From Fidelibacterota bacterium (lineage in GTDB: Bacteria; Fidelibacterota; Marinisomatia; Marinisomatales; JABMOV01): a stretch of 64,000 nucleotides of DNA. The stretch covers positions 4,948 through 68,947 of the forward strand of contig JBHHUC010000005.1 in NCBI GenBank assembly GCA_046861395.1, in the 5' to 3' direction. Shown piece after piece: positions 731-23,376 of the stretch. The position numbers and the translations under genes are program-made. The notes under the pieces are model-generated. The model was not told the DNA's origin. It saw nothing but the letters and a program-made list of their open reading frames with translations, and did no database searches. How positions within the stretch are numbered: position 1 is the first letter of the stretch; the number at the start of each line of letters is the position of its first letter.

Positions 731-781
731 CCTGTTGACCACAAAGTCTTCCTATCGTACATTAAATTTGGGAGTTATATC

Positions 782-3607: not shown

Positions 3608-3625
3608 TCAGGAAGGAAACGGCTC

Positions 3626-4258
3626 ATGGCATTAGCAGGTGCTTCTTCAATCCGGGAACTGGAGGAACGATATGACCTGATCGCTCCCTGGTTTCCTCTC
3701 TGGGTACGGATTCTGGAATACCGGACGCGGCTTTGGGAAATCCGACAATTACCGGTATCCGATAGCCTGATCATATCTCCTCCCGGCGACCCTTTTCTCG
3801 GATTGTTATTGAAAACTAATACCGGTCGCTCTTCGTACCTCTGCCTTTCCCCGACACTGGAAAAACGAGTAAAGCGTTATTGTGCCCAAAAGCATCTCTC
3901 CGGTCTACATCTGATCCGGGGTTATTCCCTGCCATTCGCCATACCCGACAATCATTTTGATGCCGTTTTCGCCAATTGCCTCTTTGATTTCTGTGACGAT
4001 TCCCTTTTGTCCGTGTTGCTGGCGGAAAGCCTGCGTATTCTGAAACCCGAAGGTCGGTTGTATCTTGTTTTAATGGATCAGCCCCGGACCCTGATGGGAA
4101 CCGGGTGGCAATGGGTGTTTACTCATTTTCCCCGTCTCAGCGGAGGCTGCCATCCCGTTGCCAGCCTCCCTCCGGCAAAAAGGTACACGATCCACACCGG
4201 TGAGCGATGGACTCGTTTCGGTTTTCCGCTGGGATTATTCATCCTGAAAAAACGGTAA
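3626..4258 (+). CDS. class I SAM-dependent methyltransferase-like protein (motif I degenerate)
   Basis: 'FDAVFANCLFDFCDD...LRILKPEGRLYLVLMD' matches the post-I/II/III region of Methyltransf_11-type enzymes. The expected GxGxG SAM loop is not obvious ('LIISPPGDP'). Confidence 0.45.
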   Translation: MALAGASSIRELEERYDLIAPWFPLWVRILEYRTRLWEIRQLPVSDSLIISPPGDPFLGLLLKTNTGRSSYLCLSPTLEKRVKRYCAQKHLSGLHLIRGYSLPFAIPDNHFDAVFANCLFDFCDDSLLSVLLAESLRILKPEGRLYLVLMDQPRTLMGTGWQWVFTHFPRLSGGCHPVASLPPAKRYTIHTGERWTRFGFPLGLFILKKR

Positions 4259-4307
4259 ATAATAAATTCCCACTGTTTCGCTTTACACAAAAACAGTAGG
4301 TTAAACC

Positions 4308-4745
4308 ATGTCAATTTCTATCCGCAACATGCGAAACGTCCTGATTTACTATTATGCGACTTTGCAAACATTGCATTTGCTGGCCCTGTTGCAGGCCGGT
4401 CGGGAATATTTAACAACCGGACAAATCGGTTTTCCGGCCGCAACGGTTACGACTTGGTCGGCGGATGCGATTCCTTTTCTGGTCGGAACCGCCATTCTGG
4501 ACCTTCTCATGATTCCCCTGGCCTGGGTCCTGGTGTGGTGTCTTATCAAACGGGATCCCCGGGAACGAATTGTTGAAACCGTCGCTCTTACCGGGTCGCT
4601 GTATTCCGCCGGAATCTTCCTGCTGGGGACCTGGCCTTCCGGCGCCTGGCAGGCTCATCCCCAGGCCTACGGCCTGCTGGCCATTTTGTTCAGTCCCGTA
4701 ATTCTCTTGGTTATCCTGGAACTATGGTGGAGGAAAAACCCATGA
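4308..4745 (+). CDS. hypothetical polytopic membrane protein
   Basis: 145-aa ORF with about four hydrophobic helices. No recognisable family. Confidence 0.5.
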   Translation: MSISIRNMRNVLIYYYATLQTLHLLALLQAGREYLTTGQIGFPAATVTTWSADAIPFLVGTAILDLLMIPLAWVLVWCLIKRDPRERIVETVALTGSLYSAGIFLLGTWPSGAWQAHPQAYGLLAILFSPVILLVILELWWRKNP

Positions 4746-5080
4746 CAATGGATCTCTTTTATACTTCCCTGGCGGAAACGGCCAAGGCCTGGCTCTATGT
4801 CTTCTTCATCCTGCTGATCTTTTTTGCCCTCTGGCAGCGAAAGCAGGGTCGACCCGGCTGGAGGAACTGGATCCACGCTATCATTCTCATCAACTTTATC
4901 ATCGGTGGTCTCTACTGTGGGCTGCGCATGCTTACCACCGATCCTATGACCGATATGATCGTACGGCGCATGTTTGCCTGGGAAGCGTGGTTTTGTTTCG
5001 GCGGTGCCAGTTTCTACTTTCTGGGTCTCACATTTTTAAGTTATATAAAGCAGGGGCATTCCGGGTCCGAAAACGGTTAA
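4724..5080 (+). CDS. hypothetical membrane protein
   Basis: 118-aa ORF with about three hydrophobic helices. It overlaps the previous ORF by 22 nt, suggesting coupling. Confidence 0.45.
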   Translation: MVEEKPMTMDLFYTSLAETAKAWLYVFFILLIFFALWQRKQGRPGWRNWIHAIILINFIIGGLYCGLRMLTTDPMTDMIVRRMFAWEAWFCFGGASFYFLGLTFLSYIKQGHSGSENG

Positions 5081-5187
5081 ATTTCCCGACAACTTTTCCT
5101 GAGACCAGAACCAACATGTGGAGCGTTTCTACTCCGAATGTGTTTTGAATCATTACCAATGACCATTTTATCAGATAAGGAATAATT

Positions 5188-5679
5188 ATGGAAAATATTC
5201 TCATCAATCAATCGGTGGCCATCCTTTGTGATGGAAATAACATTGAACGCAGCATCCATGAATTATCGGGGACTAAAAATGCCATGATAAATTTTGACAT
5301 GCTGATTCCCAAATTACTGAATGACCGCGGCCTGAACCGCTTATTATACTTCCGGGAAGGGAAGTCCATTTCATCCAAATTTGCTGAACGGCTCCATGAA
5401 AACTATTATGGGTCTGTCATCCCGTGCCATAAATCGGCTGATATTCCACTCTCAATCAAGGCTACCCAACTGGCCTCCAAGGTGGATACCATTATTATCA
5501 TGTCCGGTGATTCCGACTACGTGGATCTAGTTTCACATTTAAAGGGGGAAGGGGTTCGCGTGGAAATTGCTGCCGTGAAACAGACCACGGCCCGGGTCCT
5601 GGTGGAAGAAGCAGACTATTTCCACGAAATCACTAAGGAAGACTGGTTTATATACAAAGCACCGCGGAAGCAGAGATAA
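5188..5679 (+). CDS. NYN/LabA-like domain protein (putative RNase fold)
   Basis: 'VAILCDGNNIE' at the N-terminus and 'IIIMSGDSDYVDLVSHLKGEGVRVEIAA' are the characteristic acidic motifs of NYN (DUF88/LabA) domains. Confidence 0.75.
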   Translation: MENILINQSVAILCDGNNIERSIHELSGTKNAMINFDMLIPKLLNDRGLNRLLYFREGKSISSKFAERLHENYYGSVIPCHKSADIPLSIKATQLASKVDTIIIMSGDSDYVDLVSHLKGEGVRVEIAAVKQTTARVLVEEADYFHEITKEDWFIYKAPRKQR

Positions 5680-5791
5680 ACCAAAGCGTTAAACGTGGGA
5701 AACGATTCTAAAAAGCCCAACGGACAGCTTTCCAGTGCCATGCCTGTGGGTATTTACATGACTTTGTCTGAATTCATGGGGCAGAAGATAT

Positions 5792-7138
5792 TTAAAGCAG
5801 AGCCTGAGCCCGCTCAATATTGCCTGTTTTCCCGTAAAGCCCAATCAATATTTTCTTGATGCGGTCGTTCTTGGGATTTTGTGTATACAGATTTTCAAAC
5901 AGGGGCAGGGCTTGTTGAAATTTTTCCTGCTTGATGCGGGTAATGCCCAGCAATTCCGTGTATGATTCATCCTCCAGGATGGAGGTTCCGGCACTTGTCA
6001 ATACTTTTTCCAGGGCTGTCAGGTTATTGGTTTCCTGATAGAGATGAATAAGCCGGTTTATAATTTCACGATGATTCGGGCGTTTTTGTAACAATTCTTC
6101 ATATAGGTCAATGGCATTGGGGGCATTTCCCAGATCGGAATACAAACCGGCCAGGGTGAATTTTATTTTTTCGTCGGGAATCAGGATATCGGTGGAAACC
6201 CGTTTTTTTTGCCCTTTCAGTTGCCGGGTTACCCGCAATAGTTTTTTCAGATAAAGAACGGCCTTTTCCGGCTGCTGATCTTTAAGAGCCAGTTTATATT
6301 GTAAATAATACCCGGCGGCCTGTACCGGCTGCAGGCTCAGCGATTTCCGGATATATTTTTTTGCTTCCTGATATTTTCCCAGTGCAAACAGTGTTTCACT
6401 GTAAGTATTATACAGGGAGACGGTCATTTTTTTATCAAATTGTTTCAACGCGACGGCTCGCTCATAGTGTCCCAGAGCCTTATCATAATCCCGGTTAATT
6501 GCCAGATGCTGGGCCAGAGTATAATGTGCATAGGCACTTTTGGGATTTTCCTCTACCTGTTGCAATAACAAATTCCGGTTCCGTTCGTTTTTGGCCGCCG
6601 CCTTGCCACCGGAATAGTTGTAACCCGTATGGTACAATACAATGTTGGATTCCCGTTCCACGCCGCCCAGACGAACCACACTGGGAGACACCTGTTCGTG
6701 AATCCGTCCGATAAAATAGATTCCCTTGAAATTATTGAATAGCCGATGGGCCCCGGACAAGGAATAGGTTCCGTCGCGCTTTATGTTTTGGATTTGCACA
6801 CCGTAGATGACGGGGGACTTTTCTTCCCTGAGCAGTGACAGCAACTCTTTCTGTGATTTTTCCATTAATGTTTCATCGGCATCCAGCCACAGAATCCAAT
6901 CTCCGGTGGCATAGGAAATGGACGTATTCCGGGCCGCCGAAAAATCATCAATCCAGCGAAAAGAGTACACCTCGGCCCCATGTTCCCGCGCAATGGCCAC
7001 CGTTCGGTCGGTTGAACCCGTATCGACAACAACAATTTGATCCGCCACCGGGCGAACGCTGGCCAGACAATCTCCCAGGCATGATTCTTCGTTCTTAACG
7101 ATTAGACAGACGGACAGTGTTTGACGTTTGAGTGTCAT
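5792..7138 (-). CDS. family-2 glycosyltransferase fused to C-terminal TPR repeats
   Basis: The N-terminus 'SVCLIVKNEE...VVVDTGSTDRT...DDFSAARN...LWLDADE' carries the GT2 DxD-type signature. The C-terminal ~250 aa has repeated TPR-like 'A..Y....L......A' units. Confidence 0.85.
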   Translation of the reverse strand: MTLKRQTLSVCLIVKNEESCLGDCLASVRPVADQIVVVDTGSTDRTVAIAREHGAEVYSFRWIDDFSAARNTSISYATGDWILWLDADETLMEKSQKELLSLLREEKSPVIYGVQIQNIKRDGTYSLSGAHRLFNNFKGIYFIGRIHEQVSPSVVRLGGVERESNIVLYHTGYNYSGGKAAAKNERNRNLLLQQVEENPKSAYAHYTLAQHLAINRDYDKALGHYERAVALKQFDKKMTVSLYNTYSETLFALGKYQEAKKYIRKSLSLQPVQAAGYYLQYKLALKDQQPEKAVLYLKKLLRVTRQLKGQKKRVSTDILIPDEKIKFTLAGLYSDLGNAPNAIDLYEELLQKRPNHREIINRLIHLYQETNNLTALEKVLTSAGTSILEDESYTELLGITRIKQEKFQQALPLFENLYTQNPKNDRIKKILIGLYGKTGNIERAQALL

Positions 7139-8001
7139 GGTGTATGGTTCAGATTTTTCAATTTGGTTTCAATGGCCTCAATCACGGCCGCTACTGTAAT
7201 GTTCTTTTGACATTTGACGGCGTAAGGACAGGGTTCTTTTCGGTGAACGGCAATAGCATTGTATTCACGGTAACAGGGTGAACAGTCTTCGCCTGACCAT
7301 AAATTTGTGGCCGTGGGATAACCGGAACCTACGGGGCTGGTGCTGCCGAAAATGACAACCGCCGGTTTCTTAAATGCCCCCGCTACATGATTGGGAAAAC
7401 TGTCAATGCCCAGAAAAAGGTCTGACTCCGCAACGCAGGCCGCGCTGAGCCGGATATTCATTACGCCGTTCATGGTGACGGCATTTTTCAGGACCGGCTC
7501 ATTCCGGCCACCGATCTGAATAAACACCAAGCGACCGAAAAAATGATTCACGACTTGCTGCCAGTTTTCAACCGGCCACTCCTTATAGGGCGACCATCCG
7601 GCTTTGATATGGATTGTGGCGACGGGAAGCGGAGAAAATTTCCGTACCAGGGTCCGGGCAAAGGAACGTTCGCTCTTGGTGAAGCATATCCGGCCGGCAA
7701 TTTCCATCACCGGTATTCCATTTGACCGAGCAAATTCCCGGGCCAGATGATCCTGCAACGGAACATCTGGATAACCGTCTTTCACGGGATACTCGAACCA
7801 GACCGTACGATTCGCCTCAAGATTCACGGGAGAAATTTCATCAATGTCGGGATTTTCCAACAGAAGATCGGGATTCATGGTGACAAATCGGATCAAGGCA
7901 TCCGGGTGCTTCTGTCGCAGGGCTCGAACGGCAGGTGTGGTCATCAGAACATCACCGATGGCACCGGCACGGCAGCATTCAATGACATAGGGACGCGACA
8001 T
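7135..8001 (-). CDS. GT9 (heptosyltransferase-like) glycosyltransferase
   Basis: 'RAGAIGDVLMTTPAVRALRQKHPDA' is the typical GT9 N-terminal motif, and 'GIDSFPNHVAGAF' matches the C-terminal motif. The ORF is open to 8091, but Met at 8001 ('MSRPYVIE') avoids overlapping the upstream gene. Confidence 0.75.
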   Translation of the reverse strand: MSRPYVIECCRAGAIGDVLMTTPAVRALRQKHPDALIRFVTMNPDLLLENPDIDEISPVNLEANRTVWFEYPVKDGYPDVPLQDHLAREFARSNGIPVMEIAGRICFTKSERSFARTLVRKFSPLPVATIHIKAGWSPYKEWPVENWQQVVNHFFGRLVFIQIGGRNEPVLKNAVTMNGVMNIRLSAACVAESDLFLGIDSFPNHVAGAFKKPAVVIFGSTSPVGSGYPTATNLWSGEDCSPCYREYNAIAVHRKEPCPYAVKCQKNITVAAVIEAIETKLKNLNHTP

Positions 8002-8008
8002 CGTGCAT

Positions 8009-8785
8009 CTACGTTTTTTCATATCCCAGATGTTCCAGAGTGGGGCCGATAGCAGATTGAAAATAATCACAATCTGCGGTAGATAATTCATGACGATAAC
8101 GGCCTGAGATTCCGGGTCCGGGCTGGATCACATTGTGTTGCCGGTTAGGACGGACAGGTGTTTTCAATGGCTTGCCTAAGAAAATGCTCATTTTTTCAAC
8201 CGTAGCATTGAATTCATCGTTTAGGTCTTCATACTGCAGAACAAATATTTCCTCTTTCGGTCGCGTAGCGGCGAAAGACAACCAACCCCGCACATGAGAT
8301 TCCCAGCGGTGAAGGACCGTGGGTTCCTGTTCTTTCTGATAGCGCAACATGGCGCCCCGGGGAGCCGAACGGATAAATTCACCGACAGATGAACAGTTCG
8401 GACCTTCATCCCATCCTCGGGCATGACCATGATTTATCAGGTGCCAATTACTGAGCATCGTATCCCGGGGGTCACGATAGATATAAAAAATTTGAAACTG
8501 CGAACAGAAATAATCGGCAAAGGGTTTAATAAAAGCAACCGGATGATGTGATTTCAGGACATTGATTACCGGTTTATTGTGTACCTGTCGAAAATAGTTC
8601 TCCAGGCTTTCTGTTGCGTGGAAATTCAAGCCCTGTTCAAAATCCAGATTCCACCAAGGCTTGGCGATATAACCGAAATTCTCCGCCAGTGTATTCATTA
8701 AGAAATGTGTCCCCGACCGTTCGTGACTGATGACGGCAACCTTCTTCTGCGGTTCCGGACTCAGACTCAGCGTTAATTGGGGCAT
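8009..8785 (-). CDS. sulfotransferase-domain protein
   Basis: The 5'-PSB-like loop is 'VISHERSGTHFLMNTL'. The 3'-PB-like motif is 'IYRDPRDTMLS'. The size (258 aa) fits a stand-alone PAPS-dependent sulfotransferase. Confidence 0.75.
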   Translation of the reverse strand: MPQLTLSLSPEPQKKVAVISHERSGTHFLMNTLAENFGYIAKPWWNLDFEQGLNFHATESLENYFRQVHNKPVINVLKSHHPVAFIKPFADYFCSQFQIFYIYRDPRDTMLSNWHLINHGHARGWDEGPNCSSVGEFIRSAPRGAMLRYQKEQEPTVLHRWESHVRGWLSFAATRPKEEIFVLQYEDLNDEFNATVEKMSIFLGKPLKTPVRPNRQHNVIQPGPGISGRYRHELSTADCDYFQSAIGPTLEHLGYEKT

Positions 8786-8800
8786 GGGTATTCTACCTGT

Positions 8801-9922
8801 CTATCCGGTCTGAAAGATGTCGGCATATTTCTCTTTATAGGCCGGGTCGCGTCGATCGGCCATTGTAAATAATGATGCTGCTTTTTGTTCATCTCCCATT
8901 GCTTGTACTATCATTGCCATTTGATGATAGGCCCCGCCATTTTGGGGGTCCAGCCTTAAGATTTTTTTGACACATTCGAGAGCATGAGCCGTTTTTCCTG
9001 ACGCGCGATATACAATGGAAAGGATTAATAAAGCCATTTGATCTATCGGGTTTGTTAAAAGGACGGAGTACAGCAGGTTTTTTGCATCGTTAAGTTTATC
9101 GTCTCTCAAATATTTTAATGACATTTGGCATCGTTTTTTATTCCTGTCCACCAATTGTTCAGATTTTTCCATGAATTTATCATAGTCAATATTGGGCCAT
9201 TTTTGTTTGAATTTTTCTTTTGTTTCTTTTAAACTCTGCTTGTAGTCAATATTATTTTCCATAAAGGTTCTACTTCCGTAGTGATGGATAAAGACGCTCT
9301 CATCACACATTAGTGAAAAACCTTTATTTCGATACCTAATACAAAGATCATCGTCTTCGTAGTTACCCGTTCCTAAAGTCTCATCAAAACCTCCCACCAT
9401 AAAATATTCATTCTTTCTAGCAATTATTGCAAACCCTGCTAGCCGATTGCGTGGAGTTAATTTTCCCTTATTTACTATTCTTATTTTATTGGCAAACTCC
9501 TGAAACTTGTCTCCCCTGTATGGCAATCTTTTTACCATTTGTCTACCACTTATGTAGTTTGTAATCGGGCCAACCAGACCAATTTGAGGATCTTTTTCAA
9601 TGGACGCAACTAAAGATGTTAACCAGTTTTCTGCGACTGTTACATCGTTGTTAAGGAATAACAGGTACTTGCCGGTTGCAATTCTTGCCCCTTGATTATT
9701 TGCTGCTGAGAACCCACGGTTATCTTTATTAAATATTAATTGTACATTCTTGTGATTCTCCTTAACCTCTTCTAAATAATTCTTTGTTCCATCGCGTGAT
9801 CCATTATCAACAATTATGAGTTCAAATTCTGATTGATCCGTATGCTTATAAATAGATTCAATACATTTGATTGTAAACAACTTTGCATTTAACGTGAGAA
9901 TAATTATTGATGTTTTATTCAA
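8801..9922 (-). CDS. family-2 glycosyltransferase fused to C-terminal TPR repeats
   Basis: 'IIILTLN...LIIVDNGSRDGT...NRGFSAANNQG...LFLNNDV...EDDDLC' are GT2 signatures. The C-terminal ~100 aa is TPR-like. The gene lies in the AT-rich segment. Confidence 0.85.
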   Translation of the reverse strand: MNKTSIIILTLNAKLFTIKCIESIYKHTDQSEFELIIVDNGSRDGTKNYLEEVKENHKNVQLIFNKDNRGFSAANNQGARIATGKYLLFLNNDVTVAENWLTSLVASIEKDPQIGLVGPITNYISGRQMVKRLPYRGDKFQEFANKIRIVNKGKLTPRNRLAGFAIIARKNEYFMVGGFDETLGTGNYEDDDLCIRYRNKGFSLMCDESVFIHHYGSRTFMENNIDYKQSLKETKEKFKQKWPNIDYDKFMEKSEQLVDRNKKRCQMSLKYLRDDKLNDAKNLLYSVLLTNPIDQMALLILSIVYRASGKTAHALECVKKILRLDPQNGGAYHQMAMIVQAMGDEQKAASLFTMADRRDPAYKEKYADIFQTG

Positions 9923-9923
9923 T

Positions 9924-11678
9924 TTATTGATTCCTTAATCGAATTGTTTTTTTTAGAGATAATTGAGAAATATGATATATTTTATTATCGTTTTCTGTCA
10001 TCTTTTTAGACAGATCTACAAACCACAAATCATCTTTATACGGTTTCATGGAATAATGTTTGTTCCTTAGAGCAAAATATTCCGGAATAACACAATCAAT
10101 TGGTTTGAGCTGAAAATTATTAATTGTATTTCTCTTGGCCCTTAATTCAATTAAATCAGAATTAGCAAACTTATATCCATATTTTACTTCCGTTTTTGTG
10201 ATGATATTCCCACTAATTGCATTTGCTTTTTCAAGCTTCATAAAAAGCCTGTTAATTAATTGATGTTCATTGTACTTATCAATAAACCTGTAGTTGATAT
10301 TATTAACAATAATATATTTCGAGCGTGAACCGAGAATACTTTCAATAATACCAATAGAGATGTCATAAGAATCGACTACTTTTACAACTTCTTTTAATTT
10401 CGCCACTGAGGCTTCATCAAACAATCCGCGCTTTAAAACTATTATATTTTTTATACTATTAGACCCATTAGCCAGAAGGTCCAAGCAGTAATCGTAATAA
10501 TCCTCAATTTTTTCGCTTCCGTAAATAATTTTCGTTACCATACTATTGTGTATCTTTACCTTAAAATCATATTGTTTTAACTTTATGTTTATAGTTCTGA
10601 GATGAGTATCATCCAGGTGCATTCTCAAAAGTCTTAATTTTAATATATTATTGAGTCTCTCATTAATATGACCTTTTACAAGTTCTTGCCAATATCCTTT
10701 ACCCCAATAGTATCGCATTATAAAGTCATAGGATTTAAACAATTTTTTTATTTCCCTGAAGGAATTCAATTCATATTGATTTATTTGCCCACCATGCAAG
10801 GCTTTTAACCAAACACCTTGATAGTCAGGAATTTTTTCTATGGCTTTTTCGAGTATCTCTATTTTTTCAAATTCATTTATTAATTCTAAATCGGAAATAC
10901 TTAAATATGATTTAAGTAATAAATCCAGATTACTTATTTCATCCTCAAAACCTGGATGCATTTTTGATAATTTTACAACGCTTGCACCAGCTTTTTCTTG
11001 TCGTGATAAAAAGTTGTTTAAGTAAATAATATGGTTATGATAACCAACAGCATTCGCATTAAAAACTATCCTGGTGTCACTTAGTTTTAGCCGGATTGCC
11101 AGTTCGGTGTCTTGTGATCCAAATGGTAATGATTCCTGGAATAAACCGATTTTCATAATTACTTCCCGCTTCATTGAAACATTCGGCGCATATAAAAACT
11201 GTGGTGGTACATCTTGATGATTTTTAATTTGGTAATAGGCGAATTGCCAACCACCATTTACAGAATAAAACATAAAAGGACTGATTGCTATGTTCTTTGC
11301 GTATGGTAAATAACCCAGTACAACTATTTCTTCATTAGCGTAATCAGAGTGTGTTGTTAAATGTTCAGATATTAGTTTTCTATCAAAAATAATGTCTTGT
11401 GCAGAAAATAATAAATATTCTCCGCGGGCATTTTTTATAGCAGAATTTGTTGCAGCAGACTGCCCGCTCTTTAAATGTTTTATCATTTTAAAGGAAAATT
11501 GGTATTTACTGTTTAAATATTTTTCATAAGTCCCATCCGTTGATCCATCATCGCATACAACAACTTCAACCTTATCCATGTTAAAATTATTTTTTGCGAT
11601 TGAATTCAATGTATCACCAAGCAGGTTAATACCATTAAAGCTCGGAATAATAATACTGATTAAAGGTCGGTCATTCAT
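9924..11678 (-). CDS. family-2 glycosyltransferase with long uncharacterised C-terminal region
   Basis: The N-terminus 'ISIIIPSFNG...VVVCDDGSTDGT...GQSAATNSAIKNARGEYLLFSAQD' is GT2. The remaining ~350 aa has no motif I recognise. The DNA is very AT-rich. Confidence 0.8.
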   Translation of the reverse strand: MNDRPLISIIIPSFNGINLLGDTLNSIAKNNFNMDKVEVVVCDDGSTDGTYEKYLNSKYQFSFKMIKHLKSGQSAATNSAIKNARGEYLLFSAQDIIFDRKLISEHLTTHSDYANEEIVVLGYLPYAKNIAISPFMFYSVNGGWQFAYYQIKNHQDVPPQFLYAPNVSMKREVIMKIGLFQESLPFGSQDTELAIRLKLSDTRIVFNANAVGYHNHIIYLNNFLSRQEKAGASVVKLSKMHPGFEDEISNLDLLLKSYLSISDLELINEFEKIEILEKAIEKIPDYQGVWLKALHGGQINQYELNSFREIKKLFKSYDFIMRYYWGKGYWQELVKGHINERLNNILKLRLLRMHLDDTHLRTINIKLKQYDFKVKIHNSMVTKIIYGSEKIEDYYDYCLDLLANGSNSIKNIIVLKRGLFDEASVAKLKEVVKVVDSYDISIGIIESILGSRSKYIIVNNINYRFIDKYNEHQLINRLFMKLEKANAISGNIITKTEVKYGYKFANSDLIELRAKRNTINNFQLKPIDCVIPEYFALRNKHYSMKPYKDDLWFVDLSKKMTENDNKIYHISQLSLKKTIRLRNQ

Positions 11679-12822
11679 TGATTACTGTATTGATTTGTTG
11701 TTCCAGCCTACTTGCTTCCGCACTTTGTTCTCCAATACGCCCATTCTGATTATTCCCGACTCGAATAAAAGTATTGGGTTTCGCGATATCGGTTTGATGT
11801 GTGCTTAGAATATCTGTTAACCATCCGGGATATAATCCTTCAAATGATTCCATAAATACAATTACTTCACCTTTCATGTATGATTTAGTACTGTTTATGA
11901 TGAAATCACAAGATTTGTCTTGAGAATGCTTAAAGTCAATATGTCGAATGGTTCTCCGATTGACTTTTATTAAATATTCACATGTTCCATCCGTGGAATA
12001 ATTATCAATAAATAAAACCTCGAAGCTTGGATATTTCGTATTCTTGAGGATTGATTTTGTACACTCATGAGTATATAAAAGTTGATTATATACCGGAATA
12101 ACAATGGATACCAAGGGGTGGGTGTTTTTTACATCAACCTGGGAATGGTCTAGCTTTGGATCAATAACATTTTTTGCGATTGAGCTGAGTTTTTTCTCTA
12201 TCCTCAGAAATTGTTGTATTTTTCCCACTGCCTCCTTAAATGCCTCTCCTAATAAATTCTCATAATTGATATGTATATTTTCATATCCTTCAGCAAAATG
12301 GTCTGCTTGAGAGTTATATTTATCATATAGTTTCCCCGCTTTTTCCCGCGTAAAGCTATCGCGTCGTACCAATGATTTTATCACCGATTCTCGATCTCGA
12401 ATTATTCTGATAATTTTCATATCAGGAGGTAAAAGGTCTTTCCACACCGGGAAGGTTAAACACAGACGCGGATCTTTAATTGCCGCTTGTTTCTTGTCTT
12501 TATAACACTCCAACAACGATTTAATTAATGGATCTATTCGTATACTCTTGACATCCTCTGAATCTGGTGGATCATCCCACGTCCCACCTGCCATCTTTAA
12601 TATTATATCATTGGCCTCCATTACACTATTGCGCTCAAAATATCCCTTGGGATTATCCGGGGTAGATTTCATCAAATCATTATCATCGCTCACATAAAAT
12701 CCGGCCTCATGAAGAATGTTCATCATCATTGATGTACCGCTGCGATGCATTCCCAAGACTATTACAAACTTTTTTGTTTGATATTTTTCTTGTGATTTTA
12801 CTTTTTGCAAAGAATATCCCAT
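11671..12822 (-). CDS. sulfotransferase-glycosyltransferase (GT2) fusion protein
   Basis: The N-terminal half has 'VIVLGMHRSGTSMMMNIL' (PSB loop) and 'IIRDRESVIKSL' (3'-PB-like). The C-terminal half has 'VSIVIPVYNQ...VLFIDNYSTDGT' (GT2 start). Confidence 0.7.
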   Translation of the reverse strand: MGYSLQKVKSQEKYQTKKFVIVLGMHRSGTSMMMNILHEAGFYVSDDNDLMKSTPDNPKGYFERNSVMEANDIILKMAGGTWDDPPDSEDVKSIRIDPLIKSLLECYKDKKQAAIKDPRLCLTFPVWKDLLPPDMKIIRIIRDRESVIKSLVRRDSFTREKAGKLYDKYNSQADHFAEGYENIHINYENLLGEAFKEAVGKIQQFLRIEKKLSSIAKNVIDPKLDHSQVDVKNTHPLVSIVIPVYNQLLYTHECTKSILKNTKYPSFEVLFIDNYSTDGTCEYLIKVNRRTIRHIDFKHSQDKSCDFIINSTKSYMKGEVIVFMESFEGLYPGWLTDILSTHQTDIAKPNTFIRVGNNQNGRIGEQSAEASRLEQQINTVINE

Positions 12823-12835
12823 TTAATTCATTGTT

Positions 12836-13372
12836 TCAGGTTCTCTCAAGGATCCCTTGGATAAACTGATTCTCCGGCTCCAGCTCCCGGGCTCGTTCCA
12901 ACAATAATTGTGCATCTTCGTGGCGGTCCACTTCGGCGTATAATCGTGCCATTCTCACCAGGGTAGCCACATCATCCGGGAAGTTCTGCATGATAATCTG
13001 CAGTGCTCTCAGACCATTTTCATAATCCCCTTCTTCCAGTAAAATTTCGGCATAGTTGCGCTGGGCATCCACGAATTGGGGATCGTATTCGATGGCGGCC
13101 CCGAACAATGTTTTGGCGCTGTCATAATCACCGGTCTGGGCGGCAATGATCCCGGCCAGATTATAGGCTTCTACGTGGTGGGGTTCTACCAGGATGATTT
13201 CATTGAGCTGGGTAATTGCCAAATCATAATTTTTCTCAGCATAGGAACAATAGGCCAAACCATACAAGGCATCGGGGTCCTGGGTTGTGGAAAAACATTG
13301 ATCAAATAGTTTTTTCGCCGCCACAATCTGACCGCTCTCTGCCAGTTTATTAGCCTGTGTTATTGCATTCAT
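12836..13372 (-). CDS. TPR-repeat protein
   Basis: 178 aa made of about four or five 34-aa TPR-like units ('ALYGLAYCSYAEKNYDLAI', 'AYNLAGIIAAQTGDYDSA', and others). A GGAGG SD sits 11 nt after the csrA stop. Confidence 0.8.
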   Translation of the reverse strand: MNAITQANKLAESGQIVAAKKLFDQCFSTTQDPDALYGLAYCSYAEKNYDLAITQLNEIILVEPHHVEAYNLAGIIAAQTGDYDSAKTLFGAAIEYDPQFVDAQRNYAEILLEEGDYENGLRALQIIMQNFPDDVATLVRMARLYAEVDRHEDAQLLLERARELEPENQFIQGILERT

Positions 13373-13383
13373 TTTTTCCTCCT

Positions 13384-13635
13384 CTAATCAACCATTTCTT
13401 CTTCAGCCTGCTTACCGTAAATATTGAACAGGTTTTCCAGAACATGGGTGGATGTCATAATGGATTCCCGGTTTTTATTCCGGATTTTATTATAAACTTC
13501 TTCCCGATATATGGGAATTTCACGGGGAGCCTGAATCCCCAGCTTAATCTGGTCGGCCTCATTGGATAACACGGTAATGACAATATGTTGTCCAACCTGA
13601 ATTTTTTCTCCTTTTTTGCGTGTCAGCACTAACAT
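13384..13635 (-). CDS. csrA: carbon storage regulator CsrA (flagellar-type)
   Basis: 'MLVLTRKKGEKIQVG..I.ITVL......IKLGIQAPREIPIYREEVY' is the canonical CsrA sequence. It lies directly downstream of fliW. Confidence 0.95.
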   Translation of the reverse strand: MLVLTRKKGEKIQVGQHIVITVLSNEADQIKLGIQAPREIPIYREEVYNKIRNKNRESIMTSTHVLENLFNIYGKQAEEEMVD

Positions 13636-13658
13636 GTTCCCTCCATGGATAATTCGGT

Positions 13659-14117
13659 CTATTTCCTGTTTAAGGCATAATTCATGGGCAGCGCCTGCTG
13701 GTCAAGAATGATCTGTCGGCCCGACTTACTGCTCTCATCCACCACAATCGGGGCCCGCAGATTCGCCGTGAATCCCTTTGTCCCCCGGTTGTACTGCAAT
13801 ACCGAATACACACAGACCGAGGTATTTGACATGAGCGTCGGATTGCTTTTCTGCAACGCTTCACTCAATTGGTCGGCAATATCCGGTGGAAGAATTTTCT
13901 TATGCTCGATCATGAGAAAAGCAACTGTGGGATCGTGGTGGGCGTGTAGAATCTTGAATGGTGTAAAACCGGCAACATCACGGACGATGAATTTTGTCAG
14001 TGATTCGAATCCCGGCAGGCCGTAGGAAAACGTGTACACGTCACCCGCTTTCTGATCGTCCTCTGCCAAAATTGAAGCTCCTGAATCCCCGCTGAATTCC
14101 TGGTTTAATAATTCCAT
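13659..14117 (-). CDS. fliW: flagellar assembly factor FliW
   Basis: The 'YTFSYGLPGFESLTKFIV' motif, the ~150-aa size and the flgL-fliW-csrA synteny support the call. Confidence 0.9.
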   Translation of the reverse strand: MELLNQEFSGDSGASILAEDDQKAGDVYTFSYGLPGFESLTKFIVRDVAGFTPFKILHAHHDPTVAFLMIEHKKILPPDIADQLSEALQKSNPTLMSNTSVCVYSVLQYNRGTKGFTANLRAPIVVDESSKSGRQIILDQQALPMNYALNRK

Positions 14118-14121
14118 GATA

Positions 14122-15003
14122 TCACCCTAAAAAATCCAGCAAATTCGTCCTGATCACATCGGATGCCGTCCGTAATGCTGCGTTATAGGAAATTTCTTCA
14201 TTGTTATAGCGTGTAATCGCTTCCACCACGTCCGTATCCTCAATTTGTGATAGATAGGAGGCCAGATTAATGTTGGCCGTGTCCAGTCTCTGACGCGCCA
14301 TTTCCATATGATTCTGGATGGAACCGACACCGGATGCCAGTGATGCGATCTGATCGCTCACATCGCGCAAGGAATTAATCATATCATTGATGGCGGTCTG
14401 ATCATTATCATTCAGAGCATTCTTCAAATCGGTGAGCGCTGAAAAGACCCCCGTATTGGCCAATTGATTGCCGTTCACATTAATGGTCACGCTCAGGCTG
14501 GATCCGATTTTTCGATTGATCTTCCCGCTATTCCCATTGTAGGTCAGCGATCCGTTGGACCAATCAAAAGCCGCTTCTTCCTTGGTCTTGGTACCGGCAA
14601 ACAGATTTTTGCCCAGATACTTGGTATTCACCAGAGAGACAACCTCTTCAATCAGACCGTCAACCTTATCGGCCAGGGCGGCACGATTGGTGGCATTCAA
14701 TGTGTCATTAGCCCCTTGCGTGGCATATCCCTTGGCTTCCATGACCCGGTCCAGAATATGGTTCAGGGCGGAAGATGTCGTCGAAAGCCAGCCGTTGGAA
14801 TTGGTAATGTTCCCCATATATTTTTCATTCTGGTTTATCATTTGGCGATAGCGAGCCATGCGCGTGTATCCCAGGGGATCGTCTGACGGTTTATGGATGG
14901 TTTTCCCGCTGGCAATATCCCGTTGAGCATTATTCATATTTTCATGGCTACGGTTAATGCCGTCCAGGATTGTGCGGGTAATAATGGATTGTGTTATTCG
15001 CAT
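14122..15003 (-). CDS. flgL: flagellar hook-associated protein 3 FlgL
   Basis: 'MRITQS......IN.....M...Q..I.SGK.I.KPSDDP' is a flagellin-like N-terminus. The gene lies downstream of flgK. Confidence 0.9.
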   Translation of the reverse strand: MRITQSIITRTILDGINRSHENMNNAQRDIASGKTIHKPSDDPLGYTRMARYRQMINQNEKYMGNITNSNGWLSTTSSALNHILDRVMEAKGYATQGANDTLNATNRAALADKVDGLIEEVVSLVNTKYLGKNLFAGTKTKEEAAFDWSNGSLTYNGNSGKINRKIGSSLSVTINVNGNQLANTGVFSALTDLKNALNDNDQTAINDMINSLRDVSDQIASLASGVGSIQNHMEMARQRLDTANINLASYLSQIEDTDVVEAITRYNNEEISYNAALRTASDVIRTNLLDFLG

Positions 15004-15021
15004 GACACGCCCACCTTCCTA

Positions 15022-16371
15022 TTAAATCAGGTTTAAAATGGTTTGGATCATTTCATCAGCTGTAATAATCATTTTGGTTGCCGCCTGAAAACCTCGTTCA
15101 TATTCAATCATCTTGGTCATTTCTTCGTCCAGGGATACGGCTGAAACCGAGTCCCGCTGGTTCATCAAACTTTGTACAACTTTCTCCTGGCTCTCGCGCA
15201 TGAATGTCGCTTCCTGGGCCAGGTTTCCCACGCGGCTGACCGTCGTGCGGTAATAATCGGAAATGGATTGATTGCCCACCATGCTGGATTCACGCAGGGA
15301 TGCGATGGCTTGCGCCAGGTTACCGTTGCCCTGCTCACCGATGGTATCCGCAGTGGCAATAATCCTGGCATTATCCAGAATTGAATCCGTTACAGCAAAG
15401 TCTCCGGCGTGTTGCAGGGCAGGATCAAAGAAATTAAATCCCGTATCGTCATCACTGCTGTATCCGGAGCGGTGGAGAGCATTCACATCTTCCGTAATGG
15501 TCTTCGCCAAGGTGTTGATCCGGTCAATCTGATCGGGAATTACATCGTTGATCGTCTGGAGCAGGCCACCGATTACTCCCGATTCGGGTACAAAACTCTT
15601 ATTCGTATTTTTGACACCAATCTCCATGCTGTAATTACTGCCTTCTTCAGTTTGGTTGGCTTCCAGCTCCGATATGGTGGAAGCAGAAAGCAGGATAACA
15701 CCATTAGAAGAAATGGTCAGGGTCTGATCGGATGATTCACGTACATTAATATTCAGTATCGCCGAAAGTTTTTCCACCTGAGCATCCCGTTCATCCAGTA
15801 ATTCATTGGTCACATTGAGGCCCAGTTGCTGATTGATTTTGTAAATCTGATTCAGGATGAGATTGGTTTCCGCCACCTTTTCCTGGACGTCATAGCCGAT
15901 CTGATGTTGGAATTCCGTCATGTCATGGTGCAGGGAATTAAATACATGAGCTACCATCTGCCCCTTGTCCCGGACCCGATAGCGGGCCGCATCATTTTCC
16001 GGATCTGAGGATAAATCCTCCCAGGCATTCCAGAATTGCATCAATGTATTGGCCAGGGCCGAATCCCGCGGTTCTCCGAAAATGTCTTCAACCCGTGTCA
16101 ACAGGCGCTGCGATGTGGAATACTGACCCAATTCATGCTTTTCCTGATATAGCTGTAATTCGGTAAAACGCTGTCGTACCCGTGAGATTGCCTTTGATCC
16201 CTGTACGCCATTCAATCCCGAAAAGCCGATTCCCAGTTTGGAAAGGTCAACCTTGCGCCGTTTAAATCCTTCCGTGTTTACATTGGAAATATTTTTCGCC
16301 GTTGTATTGATGGCAGTTTGGTGCGAAAGCAGGGATCGTTTGGAAATATCGAATATTTTTGAAATTGACAT
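15022..16371 (-). CDS. flgK: flagellar hook-associated protein 1 FlgK
   Basis: The N-terminus '...AKNISNVNTEGFKRR' and the C-terminus 'SLDEEMTKMIEYERGFQAATKMI' are FlgK hallmarks. Confidence 0.92.
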   Translation of the reverse strand: MSISKIFDISKRSLLSHQTAINTTAKNISNVNTEGFKRRKVDLSKLGIGFSGLNGVQGSKAISRVRQRFTELQLYQEKHELGQYSTSQRLLTRVEDIFGEPRDSALANTLMQFWNAWEDLSSDPENDAARYRVRDKGQMVAHVFNSLHHDMTEFQHQIGYDVQEKVAETNLILNQIYKINQQLGLNVTNELLDERDAQVEKLSAILNINVRESSDQTLTISSNGVILLSASTISELEANQTEEGSNYSMEIGVKNTNKSFVPESGVIGGLLQTINDVIPDQIDRINTLAKTITEDVNALHRSGYSSDDDTGFNFFDPALQHAGDFAVTDSILDNARIIATADTIGEQGNGNLAQAIASLRESSMVGNQSISDYYRTTVSRVGNLAQEATFMRESQEKVVQSLMNQRDSVSAVSLDEEMTKMIEYERGFQAATKMIITADEMIQTILNLI

Positions 16372-16379
16372 CTAAACGC

Positions 16380-16901
16380 TCACAATTGAAAATCCAACAC
16401 TGTGGTTGGGGTGGATTCTTCTCGGGAAAGCTGGCCCTTGTTATCATAGAGTTTCGCATCCTTCCGTTCCAGCGATAAAAAGGTTCGGATCAAGCTTTGT
16501 ATGTATTCGATGGATTTCAACAATAATCGACGATTTTCCAGATTGGTCCATTGGATTTCCCTGACAACGCTGCGCAATTCATCCCGGAGCGCTTCCAGCG
16601 TGGACCGGTATTCATCCGGAGCCCGAGCAATAATGTCTTTTAATTTCATGTCTTTTCCATCCGGGGATTCGATTAACCTGGACAGCAAACGGTAGCGTTT
16701 TTCCGAGAAATGATTGGCGGTTCGCAGGGTATATTGTTCTTTTACCAGGATGCCGTCCAATTCAGAAATTTTTCCGGCCACAATCACTTTTGATTTTTGC
16801 CGCATGGTACGCAGGACGTTTTCGTAGAGATCCTTCTCTTCCGTAAGCAGATCAATGCACAATTGCCAGTTCACAGGTTCACTCATATTCGCCTCCTTCA
16901 C
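16380..16901 (-). CDS. flgN: FlgN-like flagellar export chaperone
   Basis: All-helical 173-aa protein immediately upstream of flgK with an 8-nt gap, which is the usual flgN position. Confidence 0.6.
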   Translation of the reverse strand: MKEANMSEPVNWQLCIDLLTEEKDLYENVLRTMRQKSKVIVAGKISELDGILVKEQYTLRTANHFSEKRYRLLSRLIESPDGKDMKLKDIIARAPDEYRSTLEALRDELRSVVREIQWTNLENRRLLLKSIEYIQSLIRTFLSLERKDAKLYDNKGQLSREESTPTTVLDFQL

Positions 16902-17253
16902 CGCTTATGGCAGATAGATCCGGCAGGACATTTTCCTGTAAATCATCCATTTTACCCAGAGCGGATGTGCCCTCTTCCGACAATGATCGATATATCATTT
17001 CGGACAGACCAATGCCGCCGGAACCGGCAATGGCATCGCCCATGATGGAACTGAACATCATGGTGGAAAGGGATTGCCCTGAGCTTTCTTTGGGAATCGT
17101 TTTTTCCATCACCTTGATCAGATGAGACAGAAATACGGCTTCCAGTTCCTTGCTCTTTTCGCGCAGGGCAAGATCATGACCGGAATCCTTTGAGGCGGGA
17201 CGTCCCTGGATAAGCTTAGGAAAGGAGTCGGGAGTTACTTCCATGATGATCAA
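16879..17253 (-). CDS. flgJ: rod-binding protein (FlgJ N-terminal-domain type, no muramidase domain)
   Basis: 'ELEAVFLSHLIKVMEKTIP' is the Rod-binding motif. The protein is 124 aa, and its start overlaps the flgI stop. Confidence 0.8.
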   Translation of the reverse strand: MIIMEVTPDSFPKLIQGRPASKDSGHDLALREKSKELEAVFLSHLIKVMEKTIPKESSGQSLSTMMFSSIMGDAIAGSGGIGLSEMIYRSLSEEGTSALGKMDDLQENVLPDLSAISGEGGEYE

Positions 17254-18392
17254 ATGATAATCAGTTTGGCGTTCAGAGCGCCCGCCTCTTTAATGGATTG
17301 AAATATGGCGATTACATCCCGAGGTTTTAATCCCAGGGCATTCAGAGCGGCAGCCAGATCGCCGACCGTGCTGGTTTTGGGCAGCATGGCAATGGTTGAA
17401 CTTTCCTCCGCCGTGGTTGATGTCTGTGGTACCACCACCGTCTGACCGGAGTTGCTAAACGGGGCCGCTGGCTGGGAAATGATCGGTCGCTGTGAGGTGT
17501 GAATCGTCAGGTTGCCGTGAGAAATCATGACTTCCTGAATATTGACATTGGCACCGGCCACAATGGTGCCGGTCCTTTCATTCAGCACAACCCGCGCTTC
17601 CACGTCCGGCTCCACAAACAGCGTCTCAATACTGGCAATAAAAAAGATAGCATCTTCCTGAGTCATGACCAGTTCCGGGTAATTCACTTCCACCAGAGCC
17701 GAACTGATCGGTCGGGCAATTTGGTTATTGACGACCAATCCATCCGCAGTCGTGTATCCGCCCCGAATGATATTGATTTCCTGGGCTATGCGGCTAGCGG
17801 TCACAAAATCCGGCTCATTCAGGACCAGTCGCAGGGGCTCGTTTAAATCCATGATGGGAGAAGCCAATTCCTTGGTCAGTGTGCCGCCGTTGGGAACACG
17901 TCCAACCAGAGCATGATTTTTCCGCAGACGTTCCCCGCCAATGGTTTCCACATTGAATCCGCCAATGGAAAGAGGCCCCTGGGATTGACCGTAATAATTC
18001 CCTTCCTTGTCCAGCAACGGCGTCATGAGAAGCACGCCGCCTTCCAGCGTTGTTGCATCTCCGATGGAGGAAACAGTAACGTCAAATTTGGATCCCACGC
18101 GGCCATAAGACGGGGTGGTCCCTGTCACCATTACGGCTGCGACATTCCGGATGCGTAATTCATTTTTAGGGACTGTAATTCCAAATCGTTCCAGCATATT
18201 ACTAATTGTTTGAACAGTAAAGACCGCACCGTGACGTACATTGCTCCGGTCGCCTGTGCCGTTCAGTCCCACCACCAGGCCATAACCGATGAGGGCCTCC
18301 TGCGTTGTGTTTTCGATGCTGGCAATGTCCTTCAGACGTACCTGTCCTGATAAAACCAGGGATAGACAAAGAGTAATAACGGTTATTCTCAT
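17250..18392 (-). CDS. flgI: flagellar P-ring protein FlgI
   Basis: 'RLKDIASIE....L.GYGLVVGLNGTGD' and the C-terminus 'LNALG..P.D.IAI.Q.IK.AGAL.A.L' support the call. Confidence 0.95.
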   Translation of the reverse strand: MRITVITLCLSLVLSGQVRLKDIASIENTTQEALIGYGLVVGLNGTGDRSNVRHGAVFTVQTISNMLERFGITVPKNELRIRNVAAVMVTGTTPSYGRVGSKFDVTVSSIGDATTLEGGVLLMTPLLDKEGNYYGQSQGPLSIGGFNVETIGGERLRKNHALVGRVPNGGTLTKELASPIMDLNEPLRLVLNEPDFVTASRIAQEINIIRGGYTTADGLVVNNQIARPISSALVEVNYPELVMTQEDAIFFIASIETLFVEPDVEARVVLNERTGTIVAGANVNIQEVMISHGNLTIHTSQRPIISQPAAPFSNSGQTVVVPQTSTTAEESSTIAMLPKTSTVGDLAAALNALGLKPRDVIAIFQSIKEAGALNAKLIII

Positions 18393-18393
18393 A

Positions 18394-21242: not shown

Positions 21243-21259
21243 TGCAAATGAAATGCCAA
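21243..21259 (-). promoter_or_regulatory. sigma54 (-24/-12) promoter for flgF...csrA (and probably the GT/sulfotransferase genes)
   Basis: The minus strand reads tTGGCAT-ttcat-TTGCA, matching TGGCAC-N5-TTGCW with correct GG/GC spacing. The predicted +1 lies about 15 nt upstream of ATG 21217. Confidence 0.7.
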
Positions 21260-23360: not shown

Positions 23361-23376
23361 ATTCTAACCTGCCTTA

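Follow-up and report, generated by a model that had tools for sequence, protein, structure and literature searches.

We analysed a compact cluster of seven genes (hereafter, the island) that lies directly after csrA in a 64,000-nucleotide (nt) stretch of a Fidelibacterota genome (contig JBHHUC010000005.1; hereafter, the window), and which a first-pass annotation had singled out as a candidate flagellin glycosylation system equipped with sulfotransferases. The island consists of co-directional, tightly packed open reading frames (ORFs) on the minus strand at 5792-13372. In transcription order, these encode a stand-alone tetratricopeptide repeat (TPR) protein (12836-13372, 178 residues; Pfam TPR families), a fusion of a sulfotransferase to a family 2 glycosyltransferase (GT2) (11671-12822, 383 residues), a long GT2 protein with an unannotated C-terminal tail of about 340 residues (9924-11678, 584 residues), GT2-TPR_B (8801-9922, 373 residues from a TTG start; Pfam GT2 with E = 1e-29, plus TPR), a stand-alone sulfotransferase (8009-8785, 258 residues; Pfam Sulfotransfer_1 with E = 3.4e-17), a GT9-like glycosyltransferase (7135-8001, 288 residues; Pfam Glyco_transf_9), and GT2-TPR_A (5792-7138, 448 residues; Pfam GT2 with E = 9e-24, plus TPR families). 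The upstream order is flgK-flgL-fliW-csrA, with the stop codon of csrA (13384-13635, minus strand) 11 nt ahead of the first island start codon, and fliW, flgL and flgK (13659-16371, minus strand) immediately upstream of csrA in the same orientation, preceded by flgN, flgI, flgH, flgA, flgG and flgF. The junctions, again in transcription order, are an 11-nt gap containing GAGGAGG after csrA, a 13-nt gap, an 8-nt overlap, a 1-nt gap, a 15-nt gap, a 7-nt gap and a 4-nt overlap, and the 3' end of the island is convergent with a NYN-domain gene at 5188-5679. Gene order, strand and junctions, including this convergent end, are as the first-pass annotation had described them, and a hidden Markov model search against Pfam agrees with its domain assignments for all seven genes. 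The remainder of the window is one large flagellar region that also encodes fliA, flhG, flhF, flhA, flhB, fliR, fliP, fliM, flgE, flgD, fliI, fliH and fliF, and that also holds a sigma-54 activator, motAB-like genes, fliD, fliS and two flagellins.

The first important finding concerns GT2-TPR_A, in which a GT-A catalytic domain with a DADE motif (residues 1-194) is followed by TPR repeats (residues 195-448). Its best match in the PDB, found with phmmer, is the glycosyltransferase domain of GmaR from Listeria monocytogenes (22ao_A, E = 2.1e-30), with query residues 5-194 aligned to chain residues 8-196 and the DADE motif aligned; SunS, a peptide glycosyltransferase, and a related GT2 (7msk) come next. 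The GT2-TPR architecture had previously been likened to that of GmaR, and the match takes this likeness further, to direct sequence homology of the catalytic domain. GmaR has four domains and 637 residues (glycosyltransferase, TPR, linker and antirepressor), and it puts N-acetylglucosamine (GlcNAc) on flagellin (PMC9638930). The two proteins have in common a homologous N-terminal GT2 (GT-A) domain of ~190 residues with the DXD motif kept, a TPR domain next to it, a cytoplasmic site of action and a short flagellin acceptor (~280 residues), both of these proposed for GT2-TPR_A, and family members whose genes adjoin flagellar genes. However, GT2-TPR_A has neither the linker nor the MogR-binding antirepressor domain, and it matched no PDB chain with GmaR's C-terminal portion at E = 1e-3. 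Furthermore, GmaR alone adds a single GlcNAc, whereas GT2-TPR_A is one of five glycosyltransferase domains that are accompanied by two sulfotransferases. A GmaR-like regulatory role was considered and rejected, since the antirepressor domain is absent. On the strength of its homology, we propose that GT2-TPR_A is the priming flagellin O-glycosyltransferase.

The GT2-TPR_A family is strongly linked to flagellin and fliW-csrA genes. Orthologues with 42-51% identity occur in seven of the loci compared here (L001, L079, L166-L169 and L172), and among full-length homologues the closest (40-51% identity) belong to Marinimicrobia, Calditrichota, Ignavibacteria and Bacteroidota. A survey in which an alignment of the window protein and two orthologues was used to scan a metagenome collection returned 80 loci (mean 9.9 kb), whose six-frame ORFs were searched with the flagellar proteins of the window. 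Flagellar genes are present in 23 of these 80 loci (29%), including flagellin in 21 and fliW or csrA in 7, and the median distance from the GT2-TPR gene to the nearest flagellar gene is 256 nt (21 loci with a measurable distance). Several loci show the order flgK-flgL-fliW-csrA-(flagellin)-GT2-TPR; L107 and L101 are among those in which csrA is followed by GT2-TPR, and in L107 the GT2-TPR ORF starts 53 nt past csrA. The stand-alone sulfotransferase family is absent from all 80 loci. The link between GT2-TPR and flagellin is therefore common, and the sulfotransferase an unusual addition to it. GmaR-type GT2-TPR genes are thus common neighbours of flagellin and fliW-csrA well beyond Listeria, which helps to annotate proteins labelled "cell wall glycosyltransferase."

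The sulfotransferases themselves appear intact. In the stand-alone enzyme (Sulfotransfer_1, 63.1 bits against a cut-off of 22), the P-loop HERSGTHF and residues R104 and S112 (YRDPRD..S) are invariant in 24 homologues, as is a KSHH motif, and the fusion protein (Sulfotransfer_3, 36.1 bits against a cut-off of 27, at about residues 20-191) keeps a P-loop GMHRSGTS and an IIRDRESVIKS motif. From general knowledge of SULT structures, we take these to be the 5'-phosphosulfate P-loop and the 3'-phosphate motif of both enzymes. An AlphaFold2 model of the stand-alone enzyme has a SULT fold with a mean predicted local distance difference test (pLDDT) score of 93.8, and its top 50 Foldseek matches are all SULT-family enzymes binding 3'-phosphoadenosine 5'-phosphate or 3'-phosphoadenosine 5'-phosphosulfate (PAPS), with probability 1.00 and TM-scores of about 0.55-0.60. 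With PAPS-binding motifs intact in both proteins and a confident SULT model for the stand-alone one, both sulfotransferases look functional. This is different for the short GT2 domain in the second half of the fusion protein (residues 239-358), which may be inactive because the protein ends ~145 residues into the domain and has ESFE at the expected position of DXD; the gene overlaps the next one by the 8 nt given above. The family of the stand-alone sulfotransferase is large and spread over many phyla, and an exact-sequence look-up of the window protein gave no match.

Another significant finding is that the island belongs to a cassette that recurs beside flagellar genes. The 10-kb neighbourhoods of the stand-alone sulfotransferase in 80 species-representative genomes were examined for flagellar genes, and repeating this iteratively with profiles of the GT9-like and flagellar proteins of the window added almost nothing to the first pass. 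In L006, L007 and L012 (two of them Neomarinimicrobiota), the sulfotransferase lies between two flagellin genes whose products are 58-70% identical to those of the window, and in L006 and L007 it adjoins FliD-FliS and a TPR/GT9-like/TPR protein of about 1250 residues, L007 having a second sulfotransferase. The alphaproteobacterial locus L078 has it between two TPR/GT9-like proteins and two flagellins. In L167, a metagenome-assembled genome (MAG) of Marinimicrobia whose flagellins are 70% identical to those of the window, a whole cassette (GT2-TPR, sulfotransferase, two TPR proteins, GT9, a cyclic nucleotide monophosphate (cNMP)-binding protein, GT2 and GT2-TPR_A) abuts FlaG-FliD-FliS-flagellin. 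In L079, from the Calditrichaceae, flgK-flgL is followed by an ORF of 3495 residues (8082-18569), in which a sulfotransferase, GT9, GT2, GT4/GT1, three more GT2 and TPR repeats succeed one another, and then by a GT2-TPR_A orthologue. Sulfotransferase-containing megaproteins of 2882 residues (371-9019) and 1852 residues (2892-8450) are encoded in L168 and L172, two assemblies labelled Caldithrix abyssi, with flgK-flgL directly upstream in L172. Both sulfotransferase types of the window have counterparts in Calditrichota megaproteins (33% and 32% identity), the sulfotransferase part of the fusion protein matching the N terminus of the L172 megaprotein with E = 1e-30. Judged by their domains, these megaproteins (1852-3495 residues), which join sulfotransferase, GT9, GT2, GT4/GT1 and TPR, correspond to an entire glycosylation island merged into a single chain, and such fusion argues that the enzymes work on one product. 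The cassette thus recurs in three flagellar neighbourhoods: after flgKL (the window, L079 and L172), abutting FlaG-FliD-FliS-flagellin (L167), and between flagellin genes (L006, L007 and L012).

What the sulfotransferases would modify is less easily read, as the acceptor class cannot be deduced from structure when the nearest solved relatives, cytosolic SULTs and the glycopeptide-antibiotic enzymes Teg12, Teg14 and StaL, act on small-molecule hydroxyls or peptide phenols. This is what would be expected if flagellin were glycosylated but the sulfotransferases acted on its Tyr, Ser or Thr side chains, on a nucleotide sugar, or on a small molecule. Such off-glycan sulfation would also account for L006 and L007, in which two sulfotransferases are accompanied by only one recognisable glycosyltransferase domain, and for members of the family that occur as a lone gene. 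However, the window, L001 and L085 have the sulfotransferase next to the GT9-like gene, and in L079 it lies upstream of the GT9 domain within one fused protein, while the second sulfotransferase shares its polypeptide with a GT2 domain. A glycan acceptor is suggested by these fusions to glycosyltransferases, which fit enzymes working on the same glycan, so that we consider sulfation away from the glycan improbable.

The absence of an export route bears on a third possibility, namely that the product is a sulfated envelope glycan such as a lipopolysaccharide (LPS) core, capsule or exopolysaccharide, and that the island merely adjoins the flagellar operon. None of the seven island proteins has a 19-residue window above 1.6 on the Kyte-Doolittle scale or a predicted membrane helix, and searches of Pfam and NCBIfam revealed no flippase, polymerase, exporter or initiating phosphoglycosyltransferase encoded in the island, while TPR protein-binding modules are found in three of the seven proteins. 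An envelope glycan could be suspected because GT9 is the family of LPS heptosyltransferases, and the GT2 domains resemble chondroitin and heparosan synthases. But the GT9-like protein (Glyco_transf_9, 44.8 bits) scores far below every NCBIfam heptosyltransferase cut-off (at best 50.3 bits against 170.2 for TIGR02201, with lower scores for all the others), and orthology to WaaC, WaaF or WaaQ was rejected on these scores. The upstream sugar-modifying genes of L001 and L169 (DegT, WbqC, an epimerase and methyltransferases) and the AT-rich middle of the island, reminiscent of the variable parts of surface-polysaccharide loci, also speak for such a product, whereas the recurrence of flagellar linkage across phyla speaks against it. 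Since membrane and export proteins are lacking and three proteins bear TPR, we regard an envelope polysaccharide as very unlikely.

The GT9-like protein deserves closer attention. Its most likely start is at 8001; the longest ORF runs to 8091, but both the gene call on a 99% identical 4.8-kb contig (L002), which repeats part of the island, and the length of close homologues give 288 residues. An AlphaFold2 model (pLDDT 89.9) has a GT-B fold that matches 3tov, WaaF (1psw), TibC and WaaC (2h1h), and resembles LPS heptosyltransferases and the protein heptosyltransferase TibC to about the same degree (TM-score 0.66-0.71 to the latter). Its subfamily is very small, with 21 relatives among 5.8 billion proteins. 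Four cysteines are invariant in it (C240, C243, C258 and C264, with the spacing CxxC-x14-C-x5-C), and TibC has a Cys4 iron finger formed by C339, C342, C358 and C370 (PMC4358343). TibC is the only PDB family whose alignment spans the cysteine region, the profile alignment covering residues 228-388 of TibC alone, while a PDB search with the C-terminal 99 residues produced chance matches to a CCCH zinc finger only. In spacing the cluster is reminiscent of the TibC iron finger, and at most a possible equivalent of it. TibC and its AAH relatives further resemble the GT9-like protein in combining a heptosyltransferase-like GT-B fold with a protein acceptor in the cytoplasm, and in having their four-cysteine cluster near the C terminus. 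They differ in that TibC has 406 residues and forms a dodecamer by means of an N-terminal beta-barrel and a hairpin thumb, both of which are missing from the window protein, and in that their acceptors are autotransporters rather than flagellin (PMC4358343).

Taken together, GmaR homology, a recurrent flagellar neighbourhood, intact sulfotransferase motifs and the lack of an export route make cytoplasmic glycosylation and sulfation of flagellin the best reading of the island. The best-supported interpretation is that two PAPS-type sulfotransferases have been added to a TPR-guided flagellin glycosylation island of the GmaR type, and that this combination is conserved in the flagellar loci of Marinimicrobia and Calditrichota and also present in an alphaproteobacterium. 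Judging from gene neighbourhood and homology, we consider it on balance probable that the island specifies a cytoplasmic O-glycosylation pathway for flagellin that is extended by PAPS-dependent sulfation of the glycan, and we are reasonably confident that the acceptor is flagellin or another flagellar protein. This upholds the proposal of the first-pass annotation, for which the homology to GmaR, the flagellar linkage of both the GT2-TPR family and the cassette, and the lack of polysaccharide export are the main support.

Several observations weigh against this interpretation. Besides the small-molecule and peptide-phenol substrates of the nearest solved sulfotransferases, only 5 of the 80 species-representative sulfotransferase loci (L006, L007, L012, L078 and L079) have flagellar genes. 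The expectation that the cassette would accompany flagella holds for loci in Marinimicrobia, Calditrichota and an alphaproteobacterium, but not for L001, L166 and L169-L171, whose cassettes lack a flagellar gene in the 10 kb covered; downstream of them lie PAS kinases, a ParA-like ATPase and an M23 peptidase, and upstream they continue into more sugar-modifying genes. The sulfotransferase family is also represented by a single gene in a housekeeping setting (L083 and L084), and in L085 by a gene that accompanies TPR-GT41 proteins next to a two-partner secretion system of the ShlB/POTRA type. One component of the L167 cassette is a PMT_2 (membrane GT-C) domain, which is unexpected in a cytoplasmic pathway and hints at a periplasmic step in that genome. 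Within the window, the island is 42 kb away from the flagellin genes, and there are no genes for PAPS synthesis or sugar nucleotides. The case rests wholly on neighbourhood and homology rather than on chemistry or genetics, and acceptor, sugars, order of steps, site of sulfation and co-transcription are all inferred.

Some of these observations would be explained if TPR-guided glycosylation and sulfation in the cytoplasm were directed at proteins other than flagellin, such as adhesins, type IX secretion system (T9SS) cargo, or the hook or cap, and the position after csrA merely reflected operon history. What most often adjoins the sulfotransferase (in 23 of the 80 loci) is a TPR protein that has a GT9-like, GT41 or methyltransferase domain at its C terminus, mostly in loci without flagellar genes; in L085 the sulfotransferase/GT9-like pair adjoins not only the secretion system but also a cadherin-repeat protein; the autotransporter acceptors of GT9-fold TibC set a precedent; and L001 and L169-L171 have no visible flagellar neighbours. 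Nevertheless, we regard a non-flagellin target as unlikely, given that the GmaR-type family is directly beside flagellin in 21 of 80 loci, that the cassette lands in three different flagellar neighbourhoods, and that no candidate acceptor of a non-flagellar kind is encoded near the island within the window. The non-flagellar cassettes, the lone genes, the TPR-GT41 contexts and the TPR-fusion neighbours do make the broader sulfotransferase family look like a part of TPR-guided protein-modification systems for which flagellin is one probable target. Tentatively, and as something possible rather than probable, the sulfotransferase/GT9/TPR core might mark a widespread class of TPR-guided cytoplasmic systems for protein glycosylation and sulfation, acting on flagellin in Marinimicrobia, Calditrichota (there as a single assembly-line enzyme of up to 3495 residues) and some Alphaproteobacteria, and on other proteins elsewhere through TPR-GT41, TPR-GT9-like and TPR-methyltransferase enzymes.

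Some features of these relatives may be added. In L001, L166, L167 and L169-L171, a cNMP-binding protein (~327 residues) and an extra GT2 always lie between GT9 and the GT2-TPR_A orthologue, and the window lacks both. Just upstream, L171 additionally encodes a short MptE-like (former MAF_flag10/DUF115) protein. The sulfotransferase has close homologues (47-51% identity) in L083, L084 and L085, as well as in L004, L009, L011, L013, L014 and L017, and the lone genes have a conserved housekeeping context in one Marinimicrobia lineage and a Scalinduaceae MAG.

If the island does act on flagellin, its products can be arranged into a pathway in which the TPR half of GT2-TPR_A would dock unfolded or chaperone-bound flagellin, and its GT-A domain would transfer the first sugar, by analogy with GmaR probably an N-acetylhexosamine, onto Ser or Thr residues of an exposed central stretch. 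GT2-TPR_B, the long GT2 protein and the GT9-like GT-B enzyme would then extend or branch the glycan, possibly together with the GT2 half of the fusion, and the stand-alone TPR protein might serve as an adaptor. Sulfate would be transferred from PAPS onto sugar hydroxyls by the stand-alone sulfotransferase (8009-8785) and by the N-terminal half of the fusion protein (11671-12822), and both glycosylation and sulfation would be completed before flagellin is exported by the flagellar type III apparatus. The GT2 domains of GT2-TPR_B, the long GT2 protein and the fusion match only generic polysaccharide-type GT2 in the PDB. GT2-TPR_B, which we propose on sequence grounds to be an elongating glycosyltransferase with its own TPR module (residues 260-373), matches parts of larger proteins in L001, L079, L166-L168 and L172 at 41-46% identity. 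In the long GT2 protein, GT2 is confined to the N-terminal 245 residues, and residues ~245-584 match no Pfam, NCBIfam or PDB family; Lys, Asn and Ile are highly abundant in these C-terminal 340 residues. With 45% identity, the stand-alone TPR protein matches residues 823-981 of a 982-residue PMT_2/GT2/TPR protein in L167 (232-3180), and may therefore be the detached C-terminal TPR module of larger GT2-TPR proteins. A role as acceptor-binding adaptor is proposed for it by analogy with known systems: FlmG and Maf-1 bind flagellin through TPR domains, and Maf-2 relies on a small separate adaptor (PMC7591256; bioRxiv 10.1101/2023.12.03.569772).

The proposed acceptors are FlaA (55172-55996, minus strand, 274 residues from ATG 55996), with a sigma-28-like promoter at 56132-56107, and FlaB (56505-57332, minus strand, 275 residues from ATG 57332), with a sigma-28-like TAAA-N16-CCGATG at 57447-57422. 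The description of the window as encoding two short flagellins with a Ser/Thr/Ala-rich centre is correct as to their number and their length of about 275 residues, but the segment quoted for the centre (...AISTLSTAIDTLAGRVQDVGEF...) is largely conserved D1 helix rather than variable surface domain. From general knowledge of flagellins, we take it to be for the most part the start of the conserved C-terminal D1 helix, and being mostly conserved helix it is weak evidence for acceptor sites; the exposed stretch is probably at about residues 145-185. Both flagellin leaders contain the same ACAAGGAAGT motif (56029-56020 and 57367-57358, minus strand), downstream of the sigma-28-like promoters and ~25 nt upstream of a GGAG Shine-Dalgarno sequence. 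The hag leader of Bacillus subtilis has two CsrA-binding GGA sites. The pairing of ACAAGGAAGT with the Shine-Dalgarno sequence resembles these sites and, by this analogy, fits control of flagellin translation by FliW-CsrA.

Transcription of the island can be placed in the same scheme. A sigma-54-type -24/-12 element, TGGCATTTCATTTGCA, lies upstream of flgF (21243-21258, minus strand) without mismatches to the consensus, and is a candidate promoter of the operon that enters the island; matches with one mismatch are not enriched over the window (9 against 7.4 expected). The first-pass annotation had argued that the junctions leave no room for a terminator or promoter. A terminator scan indeed detected no terminator-like hairpin between csrA and the island, but promoters could lie within the coding sequence even where junctions are tight, and promoter-like hexamers occur somewhat more often than expected in 5000-17000, in the AT-rich middle (42 against 29.2 +/- 5.6). 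With a perfect sigma-54 element upstream of flgF and no terminator-like hairpin before the island, co-transcription with flgF...flgKL-fliW-csrA from the sigma-54 promoter is the simplest reading and a plausible one; the enzymes would then be in place before the sigma-28-driven flagellins are made. A scan for RNA families returned nothing in the window, and the 112-nt gap 3' of the island folds no better than shuffled sequences.

Base composition suggests that the island did not arise as one piece. The genes for the stand-alone TPR protein, the stand-alone sulfotransferase, the GT9-like protein and GT2-TPR_A have a GC content of 0.47-0.51, and of 0.47-0.54 at third codon positions (GC3), like the flagellar genes, while the three middle genes (8801-12822) have a GC content of 0.31-0.36 (GT2-TPR_B 0.36, long GT2 0.31, sulfotransferase-GT2 fusion 0.36) and a GC3 of 0.26-0.34. 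Because this AT-rich part contrasts with the flanking island genes and the flagellar genes, as is expected of a variable, horizontally replaced segment, the island looks composite, with 8801-12822 resembling a recently acquired or replaced variable segment within an older cassette.

Comparison with other characterised systems highlights further similarities and differences. In Caulobacter and Brevundimonas, the TPR of FlmG binds flagellin and a linked glycosyltransferase modifies it before export (PMC7591256; bioRxiv 10.1101/2022.03.25.485807), so that the recognition of flagellin by TPR and glycosyltransferase that had been invoked for the window has published support. L006, L007 and L078 carry TPR fused to a GT-B (GT9-like) domain in the style of FlmG, a likeness by architecture alone. 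However, FlmG combines an N-terminal TPR with a C-terminal GT-B, whereas in the window GT-B (288 residues) and TPR protein are separate genes, and FlmG transfers pseudaminic or legionaminic acid, for which a dedicated donor pathway is required; no genes for the biosynthesis of these acids are found among the Pfam-scanned genes of the window, a scan outside which several small ORFs fall, and they may lie elsewhere in the genome. The recognition of the acceptor by a fused TPR or a small separate adaptor in Maf-1 and Maf-2/GlfM (bioRxiv 10.1101/2023.12.03.569772) parallels the fused and stand-alone TPR of the window, but the catalytic family (MAF_flag10/DUF115) and the nonulosonic acid sugars are unrelated, and the window has no Maf gene. 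In Halobacterium salinarum, the glycan of a motility filament is likewise sulfated by two dedicated sulfotransferases, although this archaellin glycan is an N-glycan that is built on a lipid carrier and transferred outside the cell, and filament and machinery are unrelated (PMC11980604). The flagellin glycosylation islands of Pseudomonas, Campylobacter, Aeromonas and Clostridioides are also variable, horizontally exchanged glycosyltransferase clusters inside flagellar regions (for an Alteromonas example, see PMC3542563). Like the window at 8801-12822, known islands have an AT-rich, replaceable middle.

What is new relative to such islands is the presence of two PAPS-type sulfotransferases, TPR-guided glycosylation of the GmaR type being already known. 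To our knowledge, no characterised flagellin glycosylation island contains an enzyme of this kind, and a literature search likewise brought none to light. The type B flagellin glycan of Clostridioides difficile carries a sulfonate on a peptidyl-amido sugar, not a sulfate ester. The search found no precedent in characterised bacterial flagellin glycosylation, in line with what had been claimed for the window: no bacterial flagellin sulfotransferase is described in the full-text literature covered, which leaves out most subscription journals, and matches on flagellin and sulfation consisted only of sulfation of the archaeal archaellin N-glycan and of unrelated papers. Nor was a report of a sulfate ester on a bacterial flagellum found in this literature. 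Sulfate esters are rare in bacterial glycoconjugates, being known from Nod factors, mycobacterial sulfolipids and a few polysaccharides. If our interpretation is correct, this would be the first bacterial flagellar filament coated with sulfate esters, whose dense negative charge could alter recognition by phages or grazers, adhesion to marine particles, or filament mechanics. Marinimicrobia are abundant in the ocean, where sulfate is plentiful, and their presence among the carriers gives the cassette ecological reach. A sulfated filament is a directly testable prediction; the conserved cassette and the fused megaproteins define the gene set, and an assembly labelled Caldithrix abyssi, a cultured species, has the same arrangement. 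In C. abyssi DSM 13497 the flagellar cluster is Cabys_1463-1503, and the species is reported to show tumbling motility (PMC5317091).

Finally, some features of the window lie outside the island and the core flagellar genes. Between the flgF operon and fliA, within the flagellar region, the interval 21437-24473 contains genes for a GAF protein and a PAS histidine kinase as well as two ORFs that match no family. A 289-residue ORF without a family match on the plus strand (32572-33441) is probably a shadow ORF and not a gene; facing it on the minus strand are two ORFs (32577-33041 and 33058-33897), which occupy the interval from fliP to fliM. At 62365-63966 is a partial surface protein with a T9SS C-terminal sorting domain (Por_Secre_tail), which fits an organism of the Fibrobacterota-Chlorobiota-Bacteroidota (FCB) group and is consistent with the similarity of the flagellins to those of Marinimicrobia. 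Beside the flagellins, 57557-61873 encodes a 1438-residue fused BcrAD/BadFG-DUF2229 coenzyme A (CoA)-enzyme activase.

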